A stretch of DNA of 63,990 bases, filler included, from Bdellovibrionota bacterium (GTDB lineage: Bacteria; Bdellovibrionota; Bdellovibrionia; Bdellovibrionales; JAEYZS01): NCBI GenBank assembly GCA_963169515.1. It is 7 parts of 7 records of this genome, joined end to end, with 100 filler letters (N's around TTAATTAATTAA, not from the genome) between each part and the next. Parts side by side here need not be neighbours in the genome. Positions count along the whole stretch, not along the records: positions 31,147 to 36,260 come from CAUJEF010000042.1; 6 more parts are not named here. One strand, 5' to 3'. Shown piece by piece: positions 7,383-60,630 of the stretch. The position numbers and the translations under genes were made by a program. Every line of letters begins with the position of its first letter. Positions within the stretch are counted from its first letter, which is position 1. Below the pieces are notes generated by a model. The model was not told the origin of the DNA and did no database searches. It saw nothing but the letters and a program-made list of their open reading frames with translations.

Positions 7383-9124
7383 CTTCGGCCGCCTTGGTTC
7401 TGTTGTGGCTTGTACGTTGGTACGTTTTCTGCCGGTCGCGTCACTGGCTTGCGTTTGCTTTCTGGGCAGGCACCGCAAACGTCTTCTTCTACCCCTGTTG
7501 TTTCGAGACACATACCCTTCGCTTTTGAAGAAGCCGTACATTGGCATTGTCTATCATTGCAGGCAGTGCCATCACCAATCCAAATGGTTTGCTTTGGGTT
7601 ATCTGGGTCTTGGCATTTCCACCTCATTGGGCCCCGACGTGGGGCTGCGCTTTCTCGTATACGATCAACTGATGAATTTTTTCTTGCATTTTCATTAAGC
7701 ATGCATCTTTGAATTCCGATTGCGTGCTTTTTTCCTTCAAATGAAATTTTGCCGTCAATTAAATTTTGGGTCCAGTCGTCCATAGATTTGGATTTTGCTA
7801 TGACGGCAAGAACGGGGCCTTCCCCGGTATTGTATGCGGTCACGGCAGCAGTGTACAATTGGACCTTTTCTTTGTCAGAAAACATCGCTAGTTTTTTTCC
7901 CAATGGCATATTTAAAACTTTGAGATCTTCATTTTTCTTTTCTACATTTCTGTTTTGCTTAAATTCAGCTTCAATTTTATTCTTTAAAACTGCATTGATT
8001 AAGATTTGCAATTTATCGGCAAGAAGTGCGGTGCCTTGTCCGATGGCTGCTTTTGGATCTGCTGTAATGGCAGACGCCAGCCTGTCGGCCTCACCCACAT
8101 TCTTTCGAGGTGGGTTGAACAATTTTGAGCTTATATATTTGGGTTCAAGACCCACCTTGGCTGCATATTTTTCGTATTTATCAATAAAGTCTTTTAGATA
8201 AGGTTCGTTTTTCATTTCCTTATGAAATCTTTTAAACCCCACATATGTTACCTGCATAATGCCTGAGGCACCGGTCGAACTTTTAGCGGAGACATCAAAT
8301 CCCTCACTTTCTTGGAAGCTCAAGCACGCAACAACCGTATAAGGCAAACCAAAAGTTATTGATGCATGGTGAAAGTAGGTTTTTAGTTCAGTCCTGTATT
8401 TCTCAAAATCCTCATCTTGGCATCCGTGTCGAAAGGTATTGAAGTAGCTGTCTAATTCGGAGTACCCAGATCCTCCATAGGTTCGAAACATATAACCCGT
8501 GCTCACGGTCGGTTTTGATATATTATCAATGGGAGGTAAAGGGACGTTCGTCGCATCGGCATATCTTTCAACTGTCGCACTGGTTGCTTGAATTTCGCAT
8601 TCGCGCGGGACGCATTCCGCGCCCTCGGCATATTTTCCGCGAATTTTATAAAACAATTTTCCAGGTGCTTCAGGATTTCGAGTATCAATTTTACTGTAAC
8701 TTTCTTCAAAGAAAAACTCTCTAAAGCTTGAATCTTCGGGCATGACGATGGATTGTTCTCCGCCCTGTTTAATGCGTTGGATGCTGGCGTTTGGTTTGAC
8801 GGTAACAGTTTCTAATTTTACTTTTGGATGTTTTTCCAACGGAAAAATAAGCTGGTATTCACGGCCTTTTTCATCTTGGACCTGAATGTATTCTTCCCTG
8901 CCCAAATTGCATGAGACGAAATTTTGTCCGGTGGCCACAACTCGCACCGATTTTCCATTTTTCAAGCTCATAATGATATCGCCGTTGGCCTTATAAAATT
9001 GCCGTGGGTAATTACACTTCACTGCGGGGCCAGGGTTTGGAATTGGAAAGGGACTCGAGCTTTTGGATTTTAGTGTCCAAAAAACAGCGAAAGGAATGAT
9101 CAAAAAGACACGGCTCAAGGTCAT
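7379..9124 (-). CDS. Exported lytic transglycosylase (SLT/GH23 domain) with Cys-rich C-terminus
   Basis: FQES (catalytic Glu), SSTGASGIMQV and AYNTG motifs; hydrophobic N-terminus. Confidence 0.8.
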   Translation of the reverse strand: MTLSRVFLIIPFAVFWTLKSKSSSPFPIPNPGPAVKCNYPRQFYKANGDIIMSLKNGKSVRVVATGQNFVSCNLGREEYIQVQDEKGREYQLIFPLEKHPKVKLETVTVKPNASIQRIKQGGEQSIVMPEDSSFREFFFEESYSKIDTRNPEAPGKLFYKIRGKYAEGAECVPRECEIQATSATVERYADATNVPLPPIDNISKPTVSTGYMFRTYGGSGYSELDSYFNTFRHGCQDEDFEKYRTELKTYFHHASITFGLPYTVVACLSFQESEGFDVSAKSSTGASGIMQVTYVGFKRFHKEMKNEPYLKDFIDKYEKYAAKVGLEPKYISSKLFNPPRKNVGEADRLASAITADPKAAIGQGTALLADKLQILINAVLKNKIEAEFKQNRNVEKKNEDLKVLNMPLGKKLAMFSDKEKVQLYTAAVTAYNTGEGPVLAVIAKSKSMDDWTQNLIDGKISFEGKKHAIGIQRCMLNENARKNSSVDRIRESAAPRRGPMRWKCQDPDNPKQTIWIGDGTACNDRQCQCTASSKAKGMCLETTGVEEDVCGACPESKRKPVTRPAENVPTYKPQQNQGGRR

Positions 9125-9130
9125 CCTATT

Positions 9131-9158
9131 GGATCGGTTAAACTGTGTCTGGAATTGA
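9131..9158 (-). promoter_or_regulatory. Putative sigma28 (FliA) promoter of the SLT gene
   Basis: Minus strand TCAAT-N15-ACCGATCC, 6 nt before ATG 9124. Confidence 0.5.
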
Positions 9159-9366
9159 GGTCTAAGTATCGAATACTATTGGGTAATATACTGCCAAGGT
9201 CGAGGTGTTTAAGGGGCGTGCAAACCATGAGGTTTTTTCACTGTAGACAAAGGGCTGGACTGTCACTGTTTCCTAAGTCATTTCAATACTGTGACCGTTT
9301 TCGCGGAATGTTTGTAAAAACTTCCGGTGGGAAATATTCAAAACTCTCTAAATCGGTCAATAGCGA

Positions 9367-9382
9367 TGGTACCCGAATTGCT
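9367..9382 (+). promoter_or_regulatory. Putative sigma54 -24/-12 promoter
   Basis: TGGTACCCGAATTGCT (GG-N10-GC), 31 nt before ATG 9414. Confidence 0.65.
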
Positions 9383-9413
9383 CTGCTTTGATTGACACTA
9401 AGAAGGGGTAAAA

Positions 9414-11126
9414 ATGTTTTCAAGATTCATCAGTACAGTCACGGCAATTGTTATTGGCTGTAATATTGCGTTCGCCGATGAGAATACGCAAGCGATGATT
9501 CTTGAACCAAGCAAAGAAGCAAGTCATCATTACAGCTTTGACGTGGCAGATATGCTAAAGCCGGGAAAGGCTGGGTACTTTGCACTATCGCCAGCCCATA
9601 AAGTGATTGGGCCAGTATATTCTAAAGAAAACGCTTCTGAATATATAAAAGAAATTTTTGGTCTGTTAATTCAAGCGGCCGATTCTATCGCAAGCGAATA
9701 CTATAAGGTTGGCTATGACGATAATGTTACCTATTGGACGTTTTTAGTTACGGCGCTTGCAATTCCCCATCATGAGAGCAAATTGATGCACGCCCGCCTT
9801 GCAGATCGCGACTTAAAAAGGCTGCCAATGTGTTCAAGCGATTATAACGAACTTCGCGCAATTAATTCTTCAAAAGTACTTTCTGTATTGCAAATGATTT
9901 ACAGAGAACCAACAGATCCGATTTTGCCAAACTGCTCTGTGATCAATAAAGAGCCGTCCGTTCAGCAGGTTTTAATTTCTACGGTGAATAAAGAGGACGT
10001 TGGGTTCATGCAACTTAATGGTCGTGCTTTTCGAGAGGCTTTAATGCCTGATGTTTATCTGAACGTGAATAACTCTGCGCGATTCGGCACTTACCATTAT
10101 TATGATAAATTCAGGGAAATTCGGTCCAATTTTGCAAAATACTCTTGTATGAAGGGATTGAATCCGTATTCGGACCATGAGCTTACAAAAGCATCTATGC
10201 AATTCCAGTTGGTTCAGGGCACATGGGGATCCTACAATATTGGCAATACATTGAGCGCATCGGTTTGCCGATTTTCAAACAAGGCTGCGCGAAACAACGA
10301 ATACGATCAAGATTTTAAAAAACATCTCGAAGCTTTGGTTATTTTGAATACAAGTATCTATCATAAATATTTGCCAGAGAACTCCGTAGAACGCAGGGCG
10401 CTTGACGAGATCATTTACAATTTTAGAAGTATTTTTACTAAGGACAGCGAGGTCGAGCGTAATGAAAATGTACAGGCCGTTTTAGAGACGGACTATATTT
10501 CAAAATATTCTGGCGGATCTAGCAAGACTGTTTTCACCCCAAACTATTACATAAACACACCTACACTTATATTGCGGCATGCCCCCAGTTTTGATCCACA
10601 ATGGGCATGTGGAAAAGCACACGTAAGTAGCTTAAAGGTAGCAAAGAAAGCCCCGAACTTACATGTCGAAAAAGTCTGGGATTTTCTGAATCCGACCACA
10701 AAAAAACATGAAAAATGGGCTCAAGTGCGCGTTTCCAAATACGCCGACAATATTGAAATGACCTCAGAAGAAAACTATTGTTACATCTATGGGCGAGATG
10801 CTTTTTTTGTCGATGCGAATTTGATTTCAAAGGTGCAAAACAAAGGGCTAACAAATACCGATCTTGTCGGTACGGTCACACAAAGACCCCGAAATCCAAA
10901 TATTCTTGAGTTTTACTCGTGGGATTCGTCGATTATTGGGCAGGTCAAGCCACTTTCTAAATTAAGTATTGTGGAAATGGCGTTGCAAGAAATTAAGGTT
11001 CGAGATCGGATCTCGGGTGATCTTAAATCGCGAAATATAAAGTGGTATAAGATTTTAATTCCAGACGGCAGTGGGCGATTTGGCTGGGTTTCAGAGCAAA
11101 CATTCGATATTGTGACGGAGAAATAG
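9414..11126 (+). CDS. Exported protein: divergent lysozyme/SLT-like domain plus C-terminal SH3b-like domains
   Basis: Signal peptide (AFA-DE); HHES, DVGFMQLN, NSARFG..Y and WGSYNIG echo the SLT motifs; C-terminal WYKI...GRFGWVS. Confidence 0.6.
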   Translation: MFSRFISTVTAIVIGCNIAFADENTQAMILEPSKEASHHYSFDVADMLKPGKAGYFALSPAHKVIGPVYSKENASEYIKEIFGLLIQAADSIASEYYKVGYDDNVTYWTFLVTALAIPHHESKLMHARLADRDLKRLPMCSSDYNELRAINSSKVLSVLQMIYREPTDPILPNCSVINKEPSVQQVLISTVNKEDVGFMQLNGRAFREALMPDVYLNVNNSARFGTYHYYDKFREIRSNFAKYSCMKGLNPYSDHELTKASMQFQLVQGTWGSYNIGNTLSASVCRFSNKAARNNEYDQDFKKHLEALVILNTSIYHKYLPENSVERRALDEIIYNFRSIFTKDSEVERNENVQAVLETDYISKYSGGSSKTVFTPNYYINTPTLILRHAPSFDPQWACGKAHVSSLKVAKKAPNLHVEKVWDFLNPTTKKHEKWAQVRVSKYADNIEMTSEENYCYIYGRDAFFVDANLISKVQNKGLTNTDLVGTVTQRPRNPNILEFYSWDSSIIGQVKPLSKLSIVEMALQEIKVRDRISGDLKSRNIKWYKILIPDGSGRFGWVSEQTFDIVTEK

Positions 11127-19531: not shown

Positions 19532-19631
19532 NNNNNNNNNNNNNNNNNNNNNNNNNNNNNNNNNNNNNNNNNNNNTTAATTAATTAANNNNNNNNNNNNN
19601 NNNNNNNNNNNNNNNNNNNNNNNNNNNNNNN
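19532..19631. other. Artificial contig linker
   Basis: N44-TTAATTAATTAA-N44. Confidence 0.99.
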
Positions 19632-25708: not shown

Positions 25709-25808
25709 NNNNNNNNNNNNNNNNNNNNNNNNNNNNNNNNNNNNNNNNNNNNTTAATTAATTAANNNNNNNNNNNNNNNNNNNNNNNNNNNNNNNNNNNN
25801 NNNNNNNN
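25709..25808. other. Artificial contig linker
   Basis: N44-TTAATTAATTAA-N44. Confidence 0.99.
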
Positions 25809-29610: not shown

Positions 29611-31046
29611 ATGAAAAAACGAATGAATCTTCTTGCGTCAGCAACGTGGCGCATCGTGATGTCTTTCTTATTTGCATTCGGCAACATCGAATATGTATCT
29701 GCCCAAACGGCGTCGAATCGTGGAATGTCAGATAATGAGCCAATCTCTATTGTTTACGATGAACAGGCTGAACTTCAATACGGAGAATATGCCGAGCTTG
29801 AACTTTCCCTGAAGGCGGATGGCTTGACAATTACTCAAGCCCAACTCAATCAAAAAGAAATTTTTTGGGAAGCAGAAGACACAGTTCTGCCAGCGGGGAT
29901 GCAGTTGGAAGCTTCTACTGCAACAAAGTTTTTATTGTTCGGCACCCCGGAGTTTGTTGAGCAATGGTGTTTTACCCTTCGGGCGACGACATACGACGGC
30001 GAGTATTCCACTGCAAAACGAGTTTGTTTCAACTCTAAAGATACGGAAGAAATTCCACATCCAATGTTAGAGACTCAACGGCAGTTGCCAACAGCGATTG
30101 TTGATGAATTATATCAGCAAAAGCTCATGATTGGTGCCGCACATGCGCAAAAAGTCTCAGGTGAAGTGATAGGAAAGCTGCCTAGCGGTGTTGAAGTAAA
30201 TGTTAAAACAGGCCAGCGATATTTCATTGTTAAATCGCGATTTAAGCAGGCAGGGATGGTTGAATTCGCGGTTCGCGTGATCAACGAACAAAATCTAACT
30301 CTTGCAAAACAGTATTTGGTTGAAGTTCTCGATAAGGGACAAAGCTATAGCTGTCCACCGGGTTATTATTTCGATGTAAATGTTGGCTATTGTGTGCAGA
30401 ACCAGTTAGATCAATGTCCCCCGGGAACTTACTATGACCCAGAATACAATAGTTGTATCGAGTTCCCAAACGCAAACGAATGTCCATCCGGATATCACTT
30501 TGACCACTTCGCAGGTTACTGTGTAAAAAACAGTACGCCTCTGTGTCCATTAAACTATGAATACAATGAATATTATCAGCGCTGCGTACGCCAGCCCTAT
30601 ACGTGCTCTTGGGGTGAAACATACAATTGGTCTATTAAAGAATGTGTGCCTGTGTTCCAGTCTTGCCCGATGGGTACGCATTACAGCTACACTCACCAAC
30701 AGTGTGTACCGAATTACAGCTCGTGTCCTTACAATTACTATTGGGATACATACTATAATCAATGCCGTCCGACTGCTCGCGTTTGTGATTGGGATGAATA
30801 CTACTCGCCAGTTATAGGCCGTTGTGTGCCAAAGCATTCGTATTGTGCCCCAGGTTGGAGTTGGGATTACGTCTACAATAGATGCGAGCCAATACGACGG
30901 CCTATCCGCTGTCGGCCTGGAGACTATTGGTCGGATTGGGAGCAGCGTTGTGTTCCTTATCGTCGCCCGGTACCGCCACCGCGCCCGGTTCCACCACCGC
31001 GCCCGGTACCACCACCGCGCCCGGTACCACCACCGCGCCCGGTACC
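29611..31046 (+). CDS. Exported protein: Ig-like domains, about 10 Cys-rich repeats, (PPPRPV)n tail; 3'-truncated
   Basis: LPAGM..GTP and LPSGV (putative Ig); repeats C-P-x-G-x-x-[YFW]-[DN]-x5-C-[VI]; Pro-rich repeat runs into the gap. Confidence 0.8.
30964..31046 (+). repeat. 18-bp tandem repeat (CGCCCGGTACCACCACCG), about 4.6 copies, coding RPVPPP
   Basis: Units start at 30964, 30982, 31000, 31018 and 31036 (partial, at contig end). Confidence 0.95.
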
Positions 31047-31146
31047 NNNNNNNNNNNNNNNNNNNNNNNNNNNNNNNNNNNNNNNNNNNNTTAATTAATT
31101 AANNNNNNNNNNNNNNNNNNNNNNNNNNNNNNNNNNNNNNNNNNNN
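31047..31146. other. Artificial contig linker
   Basis: N44-TTAATTAATTAA-N44. Confidence 0.99.
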
Positions 31147-31315
31147 AGAAGGCGTGGACAATGCCTACACAGGAAAAGACGTGCTGTATTTTTCTTACCT
31201 CCTCAGCCGAGCCACACAAAGCCGTCTGCCCAAAATTGCGGGGATGCCCGTCTATCAGTCTATGACCATCCGCAATTGGAACACGACGACAAAACTTCTA
31301 GCGTTGATGTCGTAG
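31147..31315 (+). CDS. DUF1697-family protein, C-terminal fragment (absent from ORF track)
   Basis: EGVDNAYTGKDVLYFSYL...YQSMTIRNWNTTTKLLALMS*; T.RNWNT is the family's C-terminal motif. Confidence 0.8.
31301..31309 (+). repeat. Left 9-bp direct repeat GCGTTGATG (cassette boundary)
   Basis: Identical to 36002-36010; lies in the last codons of the DUF1697 gene. Confidence 0.6.
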
Positions 31316-31442
31316 TATCTATTACGTAGAGTAAGTTGGTCATCCCTTCAAAATTCATCATAAATATTAGTTGCAATAATGGTGGTACTCGAATAAAATA
31401 AATTAGATTCTAAAAGAGGGAAAACCCTCAAAAGGATAACTC

Positions 31443-32675
31443 ATGGCAACAGATAGAATTAACGCTGGTTTGAATGCCTTCCAACAAGGAAATATAGAAC
31501 TTGCGAGACAGATACTCACTGAAGTTGTCAAATCTGATCCGCAGAACGATCAAGGATGGACTGCACTTGCGTCTTGCTTGCAGGATGATCGTCAGAAAAA
31601 ATACTGTATGGAACAGGCGTTAAAAGCAAACCCTAATAATTTACAAGCACGCCAGTTCTTTGATCCTTCAATGATGAAGGAAGATACAGCGCCAGTAGAA
31701 TCGGTTCCTAGACCTGAACGACACCAATCTAAATTTAATAACTCTTCCACATCAAATCTTCGCAAACAATCGAACCGTTCAAGAAAAAACATGACGGTTT
31801 TTCAACTTTTGGGGAAGAACCTTACTCCAGCCGAAGATGAAATCACAGTACGGACCTATCATTGTACAAGTTTATCTTCTAGATTACTTAATCTAAAAGC
31901 GCAAGGATATCTTGTCGTCACCAACAGGCGCGTTATTTTTCATGCCTACGGATCGTCATATACTGGCGCGAGCGTTATGCAAAGCGAAATACCCGTTGAA
32001 GATGTTTCAGGCATAACTCATTACAAGGGAACAATTTTCAGCCTTTCTCATTTACTTAGCGCTTTAGCGGTTGTATTTTTTCTATCTCCGTTTTTATTTG
32101 GCGTTTTCGTAGGGATATTCAGCATCGCCATAATCTTTTTTCAGGCATTTAGCAGTATATTGCAAATCGCCTGGTTGGCTTTGGGAATTATTATTGCTAT
32201 ATCCTCCTTTTCGATCTCTTCTAAGAAAATATGGCGTTTAATTACTTTAATGGCGGGTATTGTCCTTTTGAATATTGCAATGACGGGGGGGGGCACAGGG
32301 CTTGTAAATATGCTTTCAAAACAAGGAGGAAACTTCTTAACCAACACTATAGATCTAGCTAACGGCGCAGCCTCTGCCATCACATCTGTAATTGGGGCTC
32401 TTGCAAGTTTTGGCTTTGGCATTTATTCGCTTTTTTGCATCTACATGTACACACAAAGAGAAACGATCTCTTTAGCAATCGGGTCAAAAGGCGGCTCTAG
32501 CACGCCTATTGCGATTTCGGGCATATCGGGATTTGGTCACAATGCCGCTGCGGTAAAAGCTTTAACCGCAGAACCTGCCGCCGATGTTGACACGATGATC
32601 AAAGAACTTGGAGCGATGATTACCGACATTCAATCCATTGGCAATTATGGGGTTGAAAAGTGGCGAGTGGATTAA
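31443..32675 (+). CDS. TPR + split PH/GRAM-like domain multi-pass membrane protein
   Basis: N-terminal TPR (ARQIL..VVKSDPQN..GW...ALKANPNN..AR); GYLVVTNRRVIF; several TM helices; paralog of the next gene. Confidence 0.8.
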   Translation: MATDRINAGLNAFQQGNIELARQILTEVVKSDPQNDQGWTALASCLQDDRQKKYCMEQALKANPNNLQARQFFDPSMMKEDTAPVESVPRPERHQSKFNNSSTSNLRKQSNRSRKNMTVFQLLGKNLTPAEDEITVRTYHCTSLSSRLLNLKAQGYLVVTNRRVIFHAYGSSYTGASVMQSEIPVEDVSGITHYKGTIFSLSHLLSALAVVFFLSPFLFGVFVGIFSIAIIFFQAFSSILQIAWLALGIIIAISSFSISSKKIWRLITLMAGIVLLNIAMTGGGTGLVNMLSKQGGNFLTNTIDLANGAASAITSVIGALASFGFGIYSLFCIYMYTQRETISLAIGSKGGSSTPIAISGISGFGHNAAAVKALTAEPAADVDTMIKELGAMITDIQSIGNYGVEKWRVD

Positions 32676-32678
32676 CCC

Positions 32679-33536
32679 ATGAAGACATCAGATCTCTTTT
32701 TCCAGTTAAGCGACGGCGGCGAACAAGTTGTGCGTTCGTATCAATGCACGGAATTTCGCCAGTGGTTTTCGCGCCCAACGATCGGATACCTTACGATCAC
32801 GAATAAACGACTTGTTTTTCACAGCATAGGAAAATCCCTCACAGGGAAAAGCTATTTGGTAAACGAAATGCCTTTAGAGGACGTGGCGGGGATCAGCGTT
32901 TACGAGGGCGTCTCGGTAAATTGGATTGCCGTCGCGCTTTTTTCCTTTATCACATATTTTTTTGCGACAGCAATTCTCACTCTATTCACTTCTATAGTTT
33001 GGGCATATTTAATCGCTTTCCTTCTCATTCTCCCTCATGTTGTTCTGTGGCTTTTAAAAAGCAATATTTTGGAGAATTCTATCCGTGAACAGGTTTTCTC
33101 AACTATAGATGGATTTTTTAACGGCTCACTTAAAGCGCGTGATTATCTCGATATCGTTATGAGGTACACGCGCTATCCCTTTAACTTTGGCTTATTGTTA
33201 ATTGTATGGGGGATTAACAAACTCGTCGAGCAGAGTAGTGTTCCATTCTTGAGTTCTCTGATATTGTTCGTAGCGTTTGTGGTAATTTGTTTTAACCTTT
33301 TTGGTCGTGGGCATACATTTAGTTTGCTAATTGGCTCGAAAACCATGAAAGATACTGGTATCTTGATCTCAGGCAACATTTCACAGGCGTTTTCAGTAGG
33401 AAATAATACCGCTCTTCAAACGCTTGCCGCGAGCCCATCGATAGATGCAGAAGCCGTTACACGGGAAATTGGGGCTTTGATTATGGATGTTCGGCATCTT
33501 GGGGATTTGGGAATTAAGAAATGGCAACAAAAATGA
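32679..33536 (+). CDS. Split PH/GRAM-like domain multi-pass membrane protein (paralog of upstream gene)
   Basis: GYLTITNKRLVFH...EMPLEDV; about 4 TM; C-terminal EIGALIMDV..LGDLGIKKW. Confidence 0.8.
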   Translation: MKTSDLFFQLSDGGEQVVRSYQCTEFRQWFSRPTIGYLTITNKRLVFHSIGKSLTGKSYLVNEMPLEDVAGISVYEGVSVNWIAVALFSFITYFFATAILTLFTSIVWAYLIAFLLILPHVVLWLLKSNILENSIREQVFSTIDGFFNGSLKARDYLDIVMRYTRYPFNFGLLLIVWGINKLVEQSSVPFLSSLILFVAFVVICFNLFGRGHTFSLLIGSKTMKDTGILISGNISQAFSVGNNTALQTLAASPSIDAEAVTREIGALIMDVRHLGDLGIKKWQQK

Positions 33537-33560
33537 GAACTTCTCTATAGAAGGTGAAGA

Positions 33561-34652
33561 ATGCAAAATATTACGAATGAAGATTGGAAAGATATAAACA
33601 AACGAAGAAAAGAACAAGGGGACTTGCATGAATCTGCCACGCTTAAATCTATTGGCGGCGATGCAACAAATCTGAATGATGTTAAGAAAAACTTTCCAAC
33701 ATTTGATATATCGTCTTCACAAGAAATCTGCTCCGTAAAATCACATATTTCACAAGATGGAGCATTAACTGAACAAAACGTAAACAGCTATTTTCATGAT
33801 TTTGAACATATGCTTGGCTGGGGAAGAGATTTAACATATAACGAATTAGATGGAAAATTACTTCCTATAGAGCAAGACGCAAAAAGAATTGCAGATTTAC
33901 GGGAGCGCGGAGTGCCTATTCCTGAGTCGATATCGAATGCTTCATCTGATCAGATCGTAGACTATCTTAAGCATGATACAGTTATGCGAATCCCTCAAGA
34001 TCATGTCTCGGCTGTGCAAGATGAATTAGAAAGAAAAGCCAGAGAGATACCTGAAAATTATTATTTATCAAATCCGCCTACAGAGAATGAAATTACTACG
34101 TTGCGTGATAGAGTCAAATCGACAGGAATGACTGCTGAGGAAACATTGAATCAACTAAGTGTGGATAAATCCAATGCCAAAAGTGGGCAGTTGGTTTATG
34201 AAGGCGATGATCCGCACTTGGCTATGCCGCCAAGCGATCCATCCAAACGCGAGTATCTTATTGGCAGTCCTCATAACGACTATGAAGACTATAAAGAAAT
34301 CCTTAACGCAGAAGATCGGCACAAGCTCGGACAGCAATTAAATACAGCGCAGATTGGAACTCCATTAGAAAATCTCCAAACCGCATCAAGCGCGATTATT
34401 TCTTCTCAGCAGGTAAACCAAGAATCATCAACCCAAACCCAAATGGATCAATATTTTCATGACAAGCATGGGCATGCCCCTTATACTACTCCAGCATATC
34501 CTTCAAACGATCAGGCAAGCTTGACAGACAATAAGCAAAATATAACTCCTGTTCAATCCACATCTACTTCATCAGAGCAATCCTTATCAAAAGAAACACA
34601 AGCAGATTCAGAAGATAATAACGAAGATTATTATTATTCCTATGGGCAGTAA
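33561..34652 (+). CDS. Hypothetical protein with PD-(D/E)XK-like N-terminal domain and low-complexity acidic/Tyr C-tail
   Basis: GDLHE...NFPTFDI...EICSVK; ends DSEDNNEDYYYSYGQ. Confidence 0.6.
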   Translation: MQNITNEDWKDINKRRKEQGDLHESATLKSIGGDATNLNDVKKNFPTFDISSSQEICSVKSHISQDGALTEQNVNSYFHDFEHMLGWGRDLTYNELDGKLLPIEQDAKRIADLRERGVPIPESISNASSDQIVDYLKHDTVMRIPQDHVSAVQDELERKAREIPENYYLSNPPTENEITTLRDRVKSTGMTAEETLNQLSVDKSNAKSGQLVYEGDDPHLAMPPSDPSKREYLIGSPHNDYEDYKEILNAEDRHKLGQQLNTAQIGTPLENLQTASSAIISSQQVNQESSTQTQMDQYFHDKHGHAPYTTPAYPSNDQASLTDNKQNITPVQSTSTSSEQSLSKETQADSEDNNEDYYYSYGQ

Positions 34653-34655
34653 CTG

Positions 34656-35963
34656 ATGAAAAAAGATGTTCAGGTCTTTGAAGGAAACGAGCTCAAATTA
34701 TCATCACCTGCCATGTCGGGAAATTCAGCAAGGTGTTTTTTATATGGCGTGGATGGAATTGGTAGCGAATCAAAAATCCCACTGACCGACGATCTTTTGA
34801 GCAGGCATTTGTTGTTTTTAGGCGGGATTGGCTCTGGGAAAACCAACGCCATCTATCAAATTATCGCTCAACTAAGAAGAACCATGACTGCGAACGATGT
34901 AATGGTTGTCTTTGACACAAAAGGCGATTTCTATAAGGAATTCTATCGCAAGGGTGACATCGTTATCAGTAATGATAGTAAGGCGACTGGCTCGAACAGA
35001 GTAAATTATTGGAATATCTTCAACGAATTAGGACAGGATGCTTCTACGGAAGCGAATATTATTGAAATTGCCAGAACCTTATTTTTCGAGAAAATTCAGC
35101 GTTCAACACAACCGTTTTTTCCAAATGCCGCGAAGGATTTATTTAGCGGCATTCTGTATCATTTTGCCAGGTCTGGTAATCAGCACGAAATGAACAATGC
35201 GCGACTGCGTTCATTCTTAGATCAATCCCCTTCCGCTGAAATCCGCAATATGTTGCAAATCCATGAAGATTTAAAAGCAATGGTAAGTTATATTGCCGAT
35301 GACCGCTCTCCGCAGACACAAGGAGTCATTTCAGAATTGCAACAAATGGCTCGTGAGATTTTGGTTGGCAATTTTAAACAGGCAGGCACGCTTTCCATGC
35401 GCGAAGCAGTCCGCCAAAAAGGTGGAAGGATTATTTTCGTAGAATATGATTTAGGAATAGGCAATATGCTGACGCCGATTTATCGTCTGCTACTTGATTT
35501 GGCGATAAAGGAGGCGTTATGCAGGGAAAAAAGCGAAGGCAATGTATGGTTCATTATTGATGAGTTTCGCTTAATTCCACACCTGCAACACATAGACGAT
35601 GGCGTTAACTTTGGAAGAAGTCTAGGGGCAAAATTTATTATTGGCGTTCAGAATGTAGAACAGGTCTTTCACGCCTATGAAACCTCTCTCGCAAAAAGTA
35701 TTTTATCAGGCTTTATGACAACCGTTGCTTTCCATGTTAATGATTTGGCGACCAGAGAATTTATTCAAGGAATATTTGGAAAAAATCGAAAGCGTGAAGC
35801 ATATATGGCTACCGTTCAATCAAGAGGTATTGTCGAACAAGTTCGTGATGCAAATGTTGTTGAAGATTGGGACATATCGAAACTCCCAATAGGTTGCGCG
35901 ATCATTGGAATGCCTGAGCAAGAACCATTTGTATTTCAATTTCAACGATATAAAAATCCTTGA
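34656..35963 (+). CDS. TrwB/TraD/VirD4-like type IV coupling-protein ATPase, lacking N-terminal TM anchor
   Basis: HLLFLGGIGSGKT (Walker A), VFDTKGDF, WNIF, PFFPNAAK, WFIIDEF (Walker B), GRSLG..FIIGVQ..Q. Confidence 0.85.
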   Translation: MKKDVQVFEGNELKLSSPAMSGNSARCFLYGVDGIGSESKIPLTDDLLSRHLLFLGGIGSGKTNAIYQIIAQLRRTMTANDVMVVFDTKGDFYKEFYRKGDIVISNDSKATGSNRVNYWNIFNELGQDASTEANIIEIARTLFFEKIQRSTQPFFPNAAKDLFSGILYHFARSGNQHEMNNARLRSFLDQSPSAEIRNMLQIHEDLKAMVSYIADDRSPQTQGVISELQQMAREILVGNFKQAGTLSMREAVRQKGGRIIFVEYDLGIGNMLTPIYRLLLDLAIKEALCREKSEGNVWFIIDEFRLIPHLQHIDDGVNFGRSLGAKFIIGVQNVEQVFHAYETSLAKSILSGFMTTVAFHVNDLATREFIQGIFGKNRKREAYMATVQSRGIVEQVRDANVVEDWDISKLPIGCAIIGMPEQEPFVFQFQRYKNP

Positions 35964-36001
35964 TATTCCTAACTACTGAACCCCGATAGGATTAACAATT
36001 G

Positions 36002-36010
36002 GCGTTGATG
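36002..36010 (+). repeat. Right 9-bp direct repeat GCGTTGATG
   Basis: Context TTG GCG TTG ATG GAA AAA GGA TAA reads LALMEKG*, an alternative DUF1697 ending. Confidence 0.6.
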
Positions 36011-36026
36011 GAAAAAGGATAAAGCG

Positions 36027-36260
36027 ATGAATGCAAGGCAATTCATCGAACGGCTGAAAGCGCTTAGTTCAAAACAAGCGGAAAAGTTCAATGCGCCTCT
36101 CGCCGCGGATAAAAGCGACGCCATCATGGGCGTGCGCATGGGACAAATCTTTGCGCTGGCAAAAGAATCAATGAACATGGAACTTGATGAAGTGGAAAAA
36201 TTGCTAGACCACCCTGCCCACGAAGCGCGAGTCGGCGCGGTCAGCATTATGGATTTTCAG
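36027..36260 (+). CDS. DNA alkylation repair protein (AlkD-like), 3'-truncated
   Basis: GVRMGQIFALAKE...EVEKLL....HEARVGAVSIMDFQ. Confidence 0.75.
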
Positions 36261-36360
36261 NNNNNNNNNNNNNNNNNNNNNNNNNNNNNNNNNNNNNNNN
36301 NNNNTTAATTAATTAANNNNNNNNNNNNNNNNNNNNNNNNNNNNNNNNNNNNNNNNNNNN
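36261..36360. other. Artificial contig linker
   Basis: N44-TTAATTAATTAA-N44. Confidence 0.99.
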
Positions 36361-51389: not shown

Positions 51390-51489
51390 NNNNNNNNNNN
51401 NNNNNNNNNNNNNNNNNNNNNNNNNNNNNNNNNTTAATTAATTAANNNNNNNNNNNNNNNNNNNNNNNNNNNNNNNNNNNNNNNNNNNN
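51390..51489. other. Artificial contig linker
   Basis: N44-TTAATTAATTAA-N44. Confidence 0.99.
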
Positions 51490-60530: not shown

Positions 60531-60630
60531 NNNNNNNNNNNNNNNNNNNNNNNNNNNNNNNNNNNNNNNNNNNNTTAATTAATTAANNNNNNNNNNNNNN
60601 NNNNNNNNNNNNNNNNNNNNNNNNNNNNNN
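60531..60630. other. Artificial contig linker
   Basis: N44-TTAATTAATTAA-N44. Confidence 0.99.

Follow-up and report, generated by a model that had tools for sequence, protein, structure and literature searches.

The DNA analysed here, referred to as the window, is a stretch of 63,990 nucleotides from a metagenome-assembled genome (MAG) of a Bdellovibrionota bacterium (GCA_963169515.1; 173 contigs, 2.38 Mb, 96% complete). One of its contigs (C42) carries a cassette of four genes, here designated A to D, which encode two membrane proteins, a nuclease-like protein, and a soluble ATPase of the TrwB/VirD4 family (Table 1). The four same-strand open reading frames (ORFs) and the gaps of 3, 24, and 3 nt between them were reproduced as given in a preliminary description of the locus, which had also regarded the operon as bounded on both sides. 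The latter is an artefact of contig joints. The window consists of seven contigs of the same MAG (C38, C40, C41, C42, C43, C45, and C73) that were concatenated with spacers; therefore, gene neighborhoods across the joints are not real, and the apparent neighbors of the cassette belong to other contigs. The cassette fills its contig, which contains besides it only the final 55 codons of an upstream gene and, at the other end, the initial 78 codons of a gene of the DNA_alkylation family.

Table 1. Features of the cassette and its surroundings (positions along the window).
Feature	Position	Strand	Description or basis
Gene A, 410 aa	31443..32675	+	TPR-like N-terminus, disordered stretch, predicted PH/GRAM-like domain interrupted by a hydrophobic membrane insert
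Gene B, 285 aa, paralog of A	32679..33536	+	Predicted split PH-like domain (AlphaFold 2 model)
Gene C, 363 aa	33561..34652	+	Three-part protein
C, N-terminal domain (residues 1-200), restriction-endonuclease fold, PD-(D/E)XK-like (supported lead)	33561..34160	+	Alignment, AlphaFold 2, VIA-align
C, low-complexity polar/acidic linker (about residues 201-353)	34161..34619	+	Unalignable beyond close relatives; length differs among homologs
C, tail NEDYYYSYGQ and stop codon, common tag	34620..34652	+	Position counts in 62 proteins preceding D
Gene D, 435 aa, soluble TrwB/VirD4-family ATPase	34656..35963	+	Pfam, Walker motifs, closest solved chain
Start of DNA_alkylation-family (HEAT-like) gene	36027..36260	+	Pfam PF08713, E 2.5e-5, 24.5 bits (cut-off 21); truncated by contig end
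Contig C42, containing the entire cassette	31147..36260 (5,114 bp)	.	Exact mapping of genome contigs; N/TTAATTAATTAA spacers on either side
Spacers (N around TTAATTAATTAA)	19532-19631, 25709-25808, 31047-31146, 36261-36360, 51390-51489, 60531-60630

The proposed identity of the fourth gene as a type IV coupling ATPase is borne out by profile searches. D matches the Pfam families TrwB_AAD_bind (E-value [E] 2e-45; 155.8 bits, cut-off 20.5), T4SS-DNA_transf (E 2.3e-15; 56.8 bits, cut-off 20.1), and TraG-D_C (E 2.3e-10). Among the NCBIfam models, it matches TraD_Ftype (E 4e-25, far under the equivalog cut-off) and, weakly, CedB (E 0.0026) and CedD (E 0.011). The closest solved chain found by profile search is TrwB (1e9r; E 9.5e-18), and the match to FtsK_SpoIIIE is below threshold (E 0.016; 15.1 bits, cut-off 24). 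Among the models of PADLOC, D is recognized by mad8 (E 6.4e-16) and by several HerA models (E 1e-6 to 1e-2). The nucleotide-binding and all-alpha domains of coupling proteins are present, and the Walker A (GGIGSGKT, G56 to T63) and Walker B (D302-E303) motifs are both intact; residues G56, G59, G61, K62, D302, and E303 are invariant in an alignment of 59 D sequences, which has 72 invariant columns and identities of 55–75% across phyla. Hydrophobic or membrane segments are absent from D, and with them the N-terminal transmembrane anchor of coupling proteins. A search for homologs of D yielded 2,717 matches, other coupling proteins included; the best 120 of these matches are 66–97% identical to D and carry, among others, the source labels Roseiflexus, Anaerolineales, Verrucomicrobia, Leptospirales, Victivallales, and Desulfosporosinus.

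The first two genes encode paralogous membrane proteins, as had been proposed: A and B are 25% identical, fall into one family cluster, and both match GRAM below the cut-off. The Pfam matches of the A/B family are limited to sub-threshold hits to GRAM (E 3.5e-4 at best) and bPH. A begins with a TPR-like stretch (about residues 1–70), matches TPR_19 (E 1.8e-4) and GRAM (E 2.5e-3) under their cut-offs, and has hydrophobic segments at residues 196–260, 262–281, and 309–327. The AlphaFold 2 model of B (pLDDT 88.5, pTM 0.79) consists of five strands (residues 17–79), the helices of a membrane insert (82–208), further strands (211–230), and a C-terminal helix (257–284), so that the seven-strand sandwich and C-terminal capping helix by which PH/GRAM domains are recognized are both present in the model. 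Structural comparison of this model with VIA-align returned PH-like domains, led by Lam6 (Z 8.4; root-mean-square deviation [rmsd] 4.0, 106 residues aligned), 4tyz (Z 8.3), and DENND3 (Z 8.3), and also the bacterial PH domain 3hsa (Z 7.3) and PTB and FERM-F3 domains (Z about 6–6.8). The PH-like matches (Z 8.4–6.6) cover residues 1..275 of the model, and Foldseek found PH domains at E about 0.014. Judging from the model, A and B are each predicted to be a PH/GRAM-like domain that a membrane insert of four to five helices interrupts. Residues T41-N42-K43-R44 and W282 (numbering of B) are nearly invariant in the family alignment. The family comprises 1,403 representatives at 50% identity (E ≤ 0.001), 507 of them at E ≤ 1e-30, and is at present without annotation; it has no Pfam model above cut-off, and no named ESM Atlas cluster covers A or B.

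The third gene had been described as nuclease-like, and this assignment agrees with the invariance of residues E24, D49, S58, V59, K60, and H62 in the alignment of the C family and with structural neighbors of the PD-(D/E)XK type at modest Z-scores; E24, D49, and S58-V59-K60 are candidates for the acidic residue and the (D/E/S)-x-K motif on adjacent strands that mark this superfamily. The N-terminal domain of C was modeled with a pLDDT of 86.9, which drops under 50 from residue 206 onward. The best structural match is the CdiA-CT toxin of EC869 (4g6u_A; Z 6.0, rmsd 3.9, 117 residues aligned), followed by HamA (Z 5.4), PaqCI (Z 5.3), R2 endonuclease, more CdiA-CTs, TseT, and many restriction enzymes; all matches are at or below Z 6.0, and the caution line of VIA-align is at Z 8. 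The nearest ESM Atlas clusters are CDI_toxin_EC869_like and Tox-REase-2/5/7 (score 0.83–0.87), which is to be taken as a lead only. C has no Pfam match, and its N-terminal domain has no Foldseek match in the PDB at E ≤ 0.001. A PD-(D/E)XK-like fold that is closest to the contact-dependent inhibition (CDI) toxin EC869 is thus a supported lead for this domain, and by this model, C looks like an interbacterial toxin. The candidate explanation that C is a fusion of a small upstream protein with a cargo protein was rejected; homology spans only residues 14–200, and the remainder is linker. The protein ends in ...EDNNEDYYYSYGQ, and its tail is unique in the MAG (1 of 5,844 frames of at least 80 aa).

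Comparison of 80 related loci, each with a flank of up to 10 kb on either side, revealed a fixed core of D and the A/B family, with a variable third gene whose products share a C-terminal tail. This is the pattern that had been specified beforehand as support for an export function. A hand count of labels assigned 50 of the loci to Bacillota (Clostridia), 23 to Chloroflexota, five to Verrucomicrobiota and allies, and one each to Leptospirales and Prevotella, i.e., 73 of 80 to the first two phyla. Cultured carriers among them are Clostridium grantii DSM 8605 (L080), Peptoniphilus catoniae (L035), and Faecalibacterium sp. An122 (L065). When all ORFs were clustered, wide recurrence was confined to D, present in 76 loci, and A/B, present in 66. 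A zinc-ribbon membrane protein came next with 14 loci, ahead of the C family with 11 and of three clusters with 10 loci each, namely, a tyrosine recombinase, another zinc-ribbon membrane protein, and an SH3 lipoprotein. The expected co-occurrence of the homologs was found in all 48 loci whose flanks extend to 5 kb or more upstream and 3 kb or more downstream. In 46 of these, the A/B gene is located on the same strand between -6 and +4.5 kb; of the remaining two, L008 has it on the opposite strand and L050 at a distance of 6.1 kb upstream. Adjacent pairs of A/B copies were counted in 23 loci and single copies in 42, and all two-copy loci in the gene-order listing belong to Chloroflexota.

The preliminary description had stated that genes for a relaxase, VirB4, VirB6/8, or a pilus are lacking. 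A short contig such as C42, on whose 5.1 kb no conjugation or type IV secretion system (T4SS) genes were found, cannot show such an absence. The claim holds nevertheless for the comparative set, where neither VirB4 nor relaxase, VirB6/8, or pilin was detected among the scanned representatives of clusters present in at least three loci (singletons were not all scanned). The flanks of the loci include housekeeping genes such as polA, dnaA, and tldD/pmbA.

The gene directly before D, which corresponds to C, encodes proteins of 83 to 962 aa that fall into many unrelated clusters. Four of 58 such slot proteins are above Pfam cut-offs, in all cases with toxin or nuclease domains near the N-terminus, namely, Tox-HNH-HHH (L037; 130 bits), ADPrib_exo_Tox (L080; 88.6 bits), Endonuclea_NS_2 (L050; 54.5 bits), and PDDEXK_1 (L008; 27.3 bits). 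Sub-threshold matches include DUF6782 (five proteins), SprT-like (one), and ADP-ribosyl-cyclase-like (five) domains. The similarity to DUF6782 and SprT suggests that the respective proteins are metallopeptidases; an HExxH motif is present at residues 87–107 in all nine members of the metallopeptidase-like cluster.

Despite their unrelated N-terminal domains, the slot proteins have a common tail with the consensus (D/E)-Y-x-Y-G-[YM]-G-[YM]-COOH. Among the 62 proteins preceding D, position -8 is D/E in 33, -7 is Y in 28, -5 is Y in 22, -4 is G in 38, -3 is Y in 31 and M in 13, -2 is G in 34 and S in 9, and -1 is Y in 26 and M in 14. A strict rule (at least four Y, G, M, or F, including at least one G, among the last eight residues, and net acidic charge upstream) is satisfied by 30 of the 62 slot proteins versus 20 of 987 other ORFs. 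Twelve of these 20 are located one gene further upstream, and a plain ...Y.YGYG[MY] ending is found in 10 of the 12; a looser rule captures 43 of 62 versus 176 of 987. The region preceding the tail is acidic and of low complexity. Residues -50 to -10 contain on average 10.1 acidic residues (5.0 elsewhere) and have a net charge of -6.8 (-0.6 elsewhere), and polar or small residues make up 84% of positions -60 to -8 (58% elsewhere). Additional tail-bearing proteins in Anaerolineaceae are helical and have a length of 105–137 aa; the small tail-bearing proteins have no WXG100 match at E ≤ 0.05.

Several loci contain small genes upstream of the slot gene whose products resemble immunity proteins. 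One small family matches the Pfam family IFS (cut-off 30) with 30.1 bits in L050, 27.3 in L051, and 23.6 in L068; IFS is, according to the Pfam family, the immunity factor of the streptococcal NADase (SPN). Three of the four toxins paired with members of this IFS-like family have in common an N-terminal domain that spans about 100 residues, a pattern that other small families lack. A weak match to SUKH-2 (E 0.006) was obtained for the small gene next to the HNH toxin. By their similarity to these families, some of the small upstream genes look like genes of immunity proteins.

Four loci (L028, L030, L031, and L032; Victivallales, Limisphaerales, Verrucomicrobia, and Kiritimatiellia) represent a diderm variant. 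In L028, L031, and L032, tail-bearing proteins of 83–121 aa precede D, and in L030, D is located at the contig edge. D is followed in the diderm variant by a protein of 807–935 aa with an A/B-like N-terminus and a TPR end and, in L030 and L031, next by a PEGA/TPR protein of about 700 aa. In five loci of Clostridia (L038, L046, L047, L052, and L062), D is followed by a conserved trio that encodes an F5/8-type-C protein (NADase_transloc), a lipoprotein of the Amidase_3 family, and a membrane protein of the zinc-ribbon/C-type-lectin kind; the protein encoded after D in Anaerolineaceae is an SH3_3 lipoprotein. The envelope proteins of the trio and the SH3_3 lipoprotein may or may not belong to the system.

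Fusions of D to A/B or to a membrane domain were sought and not found; the long D ORFs carry merely low-complexity N-termini, and neither of the two longer relatives (a fusion with HD-CE and a form with a disordered N-terminus) has a membrane domain. The fusion protein, P0138 (L086, positions 8001–10400; contig labelled Bathyarchaeota), carries an HD-CE domain (PF24391) on the N-terminus of a D-type ATPase with 56% identity. No A/B gene is present in the 8 kb upstream, and the contig stops 280 nt past the gene. Close relatives of this locus (L088 to L090) have the usual A/B genes, tail genes (ending in GQGM or GQGI), and D. Among 2.9 million viral contigs, a single distant relative of D was found (L083, positions 7983–9299; 40% identity); its neighbors are vWA-like and Sel1-repeat-like as judged by motif, with no family scan, and A/B genes are lacking. 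L083 probably represents another system that makes use of a related ATPase.

The fixed A/B–D core, cargo proteins with an N-terminal toxin and a common tag, the immunity-like partners in some loci, and the predominance of single-membrane phyla are compatible with a module that recognizes tagged toxins and moves them across a membrane. The preliminary description had offered such an export module as one of two readings; its support from the core, the variable cargo, the tail, and the invariance of D49 and K60 stands, whereas the premise of a bounded operon came from the contig joints. In our estimation, there is an even chance that a coupling ATPase drives toxin export in this cassette, which would then be a minimal module independent of conjugation. 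More tentatively, and somewhat short of even, we propose a new type of secretion system that is widespread in Clostridia (including gut Lachnospiraceae, Oscillospiraceae, and Faecalibacterium) and Chloroflexota. In it, a soluble coupling-like ATPase and a split-PH polytopic membrane protein would export polymorphic antibacterial toxins and small helical proteins that are marked by a polyanionic linker, which may be a DNA mimic, and a C-terminal Y-x-Y-G-Y-G-Y tag. There is a substantial chance that it represents a distinct secretion type rather than a variant of coupling-ATPase-dependent toxin handling.

In the proposed mechanism, D would act as a hexameric, coupling-protein-like ATPase that works at the membrane together with an oligomer of the split-PH proteins A and B. 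The proteins handled would be those with an acidic disordered linker and the C-terminal tag. Recognition of the tail would fall either to D or to the cytoplasmic PH-like domain of A/B. The motor, which descends from a DNA pump, would then draw the polyanionic linker through its pore, for which the acidic character of the linker may be of use, and the N-terminal toxin domain would be pushed outward via the membrane part of A/B. C would be the cargo of the present cassette; elsewhere, the slot would be occupied by other toxins, in some loci with immunity-like genes, or by small helical tail-bearers. A complex prediction that combined D, B, and the C-terminal 64 residues of C, the tail serving as partner, yielded a score of 0.00 in a run without controls and speaks neither for nor against binding.

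Several observations weigh against export. The data establish the gene families, their strict co-occurrence, the variability of the cargo, the common tail, and the predicted folds, whereas binding, the direction of transport, and export itself are inferred. The MAG is diderm (BamA and LpxC are present), no outer-membrane component was seen, and the export reading does not explain how a nuclease would enter a target cell. The matches to IFS and SUKH are at or below the family cut-offs, and the partner proteins of the small-protein clusters c20 and c26 have no detectable common domain. The 5.1-kb contig contains no recognizable immunity gene, and there is no small gene between B and C. Two further points, the HD-CE fusion P0138, which fits an effector that stays on the motor, and the matches of D to mad8 and the HerA models, lead directly to an alternative explanation, namely, a membrane-associated defence or conflict system. 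Its ATPase would sense or translocate invading DNA and hold tailed effectors, which would be released or activated inside the cell (abortive infection), and small inhibitor proteins would keep the effectors in check in some loci. The combination of an unchanging NTPase and exchangeable effector domains is typical of defence systems, and tyrosine-recombinase genes are located nearby in 10 loci. MADS, whose MAD8 model is the one that matches D, is said in the accessible part of its description to hold a MAD7-MAD8 ATPase-nuclease module (PMC13662399). However, A, B, C, and 46 of 49 slot proteins have no match in PADLOC-DB v2.0.0 (three weak matches among the 49 plus five neighbors). PADLOC finds no complete system, D alone being matched, in agreement with the preliminary description, in which the architecture was not recognized from named systems. 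Interbacterial polymorphic-toxin families such as Tox-HNH-HHH and ADPrib_exo_Tox, some of them beside IFS- or SUKH-like genes, are unusual for defence effectors, the same tail is borne by small non-enzymatic helical proteins, and the Anaerolineaceae locus lies between polA and tldD/pmbA with no evident defence island. Defence in this form is rather unlikely in our assessment.

Handling of tailed proteins in the cytoplasm or at the membrane without export is improbable. The tag would in this case be a degron-like or docking signal that directs toxins and small helical proteins to an unfoldase at the membrane, which might, for instance, regulate toxin-immunity pairs or pass proteins along filament cells. 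A short C-terminal peptide after a disordered linker resembles the tags read by ring ATPases. The PH-like domain is predicted to be cytoplasmic by topology (no signal peptide; both halves on the same side of the insert), and PH/PTB folds bind Tyr-containing tails; PTB and FERM-F3 domains are among the structural matches of B. By contrast, no protease or other downstream enzyme is recurrent in the loci, and transport is the better match for the strict association with a polytopic membrane family and with toxin-type cargo. We regard it as very improbable that the cassette is a decayed conjugative remnant or a DNA-transport device in which the ATPase would still move DNA for release or uptake, as in the archaeal Ced importer, and C would process this DNA. 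Membership of D in the TrwB/TraD/VirD4 family with intact Walker motifs, its weak similarity to CedB and CedD, and the nuclease-like nature of C are compatible with such a role. Yet ADP-ribosyltransferases, HExxH peptidases, and NADase-like proteins are as frequent in the slot as nucleases, the scanned representatives of the clusters present in at least three loci include no VirB4, relaxase, or pilin, and the loci are flanked by housekeeping genes; moreover, the conservation of D across phyla indicates selection rather than decay.

The distribution of the cassette bears on its assignment to the host. D was found neither in 40 relatives of the MAG nor in any of 300 other genomes of the phylum (for the latter, E ≤ 1e-40), and the cassette architecture (A plus B, with a C-family cargo) is of the Chloroflexota type. 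The composition of C42 is compatible with the MAG, with a tetranucleotide distance at the 93rd percentile of its 5-kb chunks and a GC content within one standard deviation. Contig C42 is either a rare horizontal acquisition or mis-binned.

The DNA_alkylation-family gene, which may or may not belong to the cassette, begins 63 nt 3' of D and has the same orientation. Across the 80 related loci, it does not recur as a neighbor, and the fragment has no close ortholog among the 40 relatives of the MAG. The remnant of the upstream gene has no Pfam match. A scan for promoters and terminators gave counts at chance level. On contig C41, an ORF of 495 aa (29611–31046) with a sub-threshold match to CBM_14 (chitin-binding) reaches the contig end in a short tandem repeat (cgcccggtaccaccac...); this gene was probably cut by the assembly at the repeat.

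If export by the A/B–D module is real, a conjugation motor would have been reused without a type IV channel. This would establish a compact form of toxin delivery in two large, mostly single-membrane phyla that include abundant gut commensals, and add a route to the short list of Gram-positive secretion systems. The tag would provide a simple sequence feature for finding cargo in genomes, and the cassette a small system for studying how coupling ATPases recognize and move proteins. If defence is the correct explanation, the loci would represent a new ATPase system bound to the membrane, whose exchangeable effectors are tethered by their tails. A search of the full-text literature, which does not extend to subscription-only papers, found no description of the gene set or the tail, and neither emerged from term searches within PMC12857230, PMC3482391, PMC7159879, and PMC8195603.

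Among known systems, the MADS and HerA modules (the latter with Sir2 or a nuclease) resemble the cassette in having a P-loop ring ATPase beside a nuclease. To our knowledge, neither the membrane pair nor the tail motif has a counterpart in them. MADS is, as far as the accessible part of its description goes, encoded by an eight-gene operon (mad1 to mad8) with a methyltransferase, a kinase, and two ATPase-nuclease modules including MAD7-MAD8 (PMC13662399). By contrast, there is no methyltransferase or kinase gene on the short contig C42, and C has no PADLOC match. The toxin-like part of C, in turn, has its best structural match in CdiA-CT EC869 and its nearest Atlas clusters among this toxin and the Tox-REase families. 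Polymorphic toxins, according to the available sections of the survey of Zhang et al. (2012, PMC3482391), have the toxin at the C-terminus of a large delivery protein, followed by an immunity gene, whereas the toxin domain considered here is N-terminal in a stand-alone, C-terminally tagged protein and has no sequence-level Pfam match.

TrwB of plasmid R388 (1e9r, 1gl6) is the closest solved structure to D and shares its family and its intact Walker motifs. TrwB has transmembrane helices of its own as an anchor, and its partners are a relaxosome and a VirB-type channel, whereas D is soluble and encoded together with A/B and toxin-like cargo. The parts of a review of T4SS diversity that were available list systems lacking VirD4 and conjugation with only VirB4 and VirD4, and describe no VirD4-like protein that works alone with partners of this kind (PMC12857230).

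By analogy, the closest known logic is that of the X-Tfe toxins, whose delivery depends on VirD4; type VII secretion is a looser parallel. The likeness to type VII secretion would lie in a ring ATPase that belongs to the FtsK-HerA superfamily, small helical substrates beside large toxins, immunity genes, and mostly monoderm hosts, and the accessible text of one report describes a 'reverse' type VII toxin with an N-terminal toxin domain (PMC10730906). The differences are that D reaches only E 0.016 on FtsK_SpoIIIE, that the small tail-bearers have no WXG100 match, and that the membrane parts are unrelated. In the X-T4SS, VirD4 operates with X-Tfe effectors that carry a C-terminal XVIPCD domain and are accompanied by X-Tfi immunity proteins. 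The cassette and its relatives have in common with this arrangement a VirD4/TrwB-family ATPase, proteins whose toxin is N-terminal and whose recognition element lies at the C-terminus, and, in some loci, adjacent immunity-like genes. The X-T4SS is a bacteria-killing system of Xanthomonas and Stenotrophomonas, as presented in the accessible parts of PMC6759196, PMC8740702, and PMC10933484. Unlike it, the related loci have no recurrent VirB1-11 channel genes around D, and D itself lacks an N-terminal membrane domain. The folded domain of about 120 residues in X-Tfe is replaced here by a tag of about 10 residues after an acidic linker, and the membrane partner is a predicted split-PH family that is not represented by any Pfam model above cut-off.

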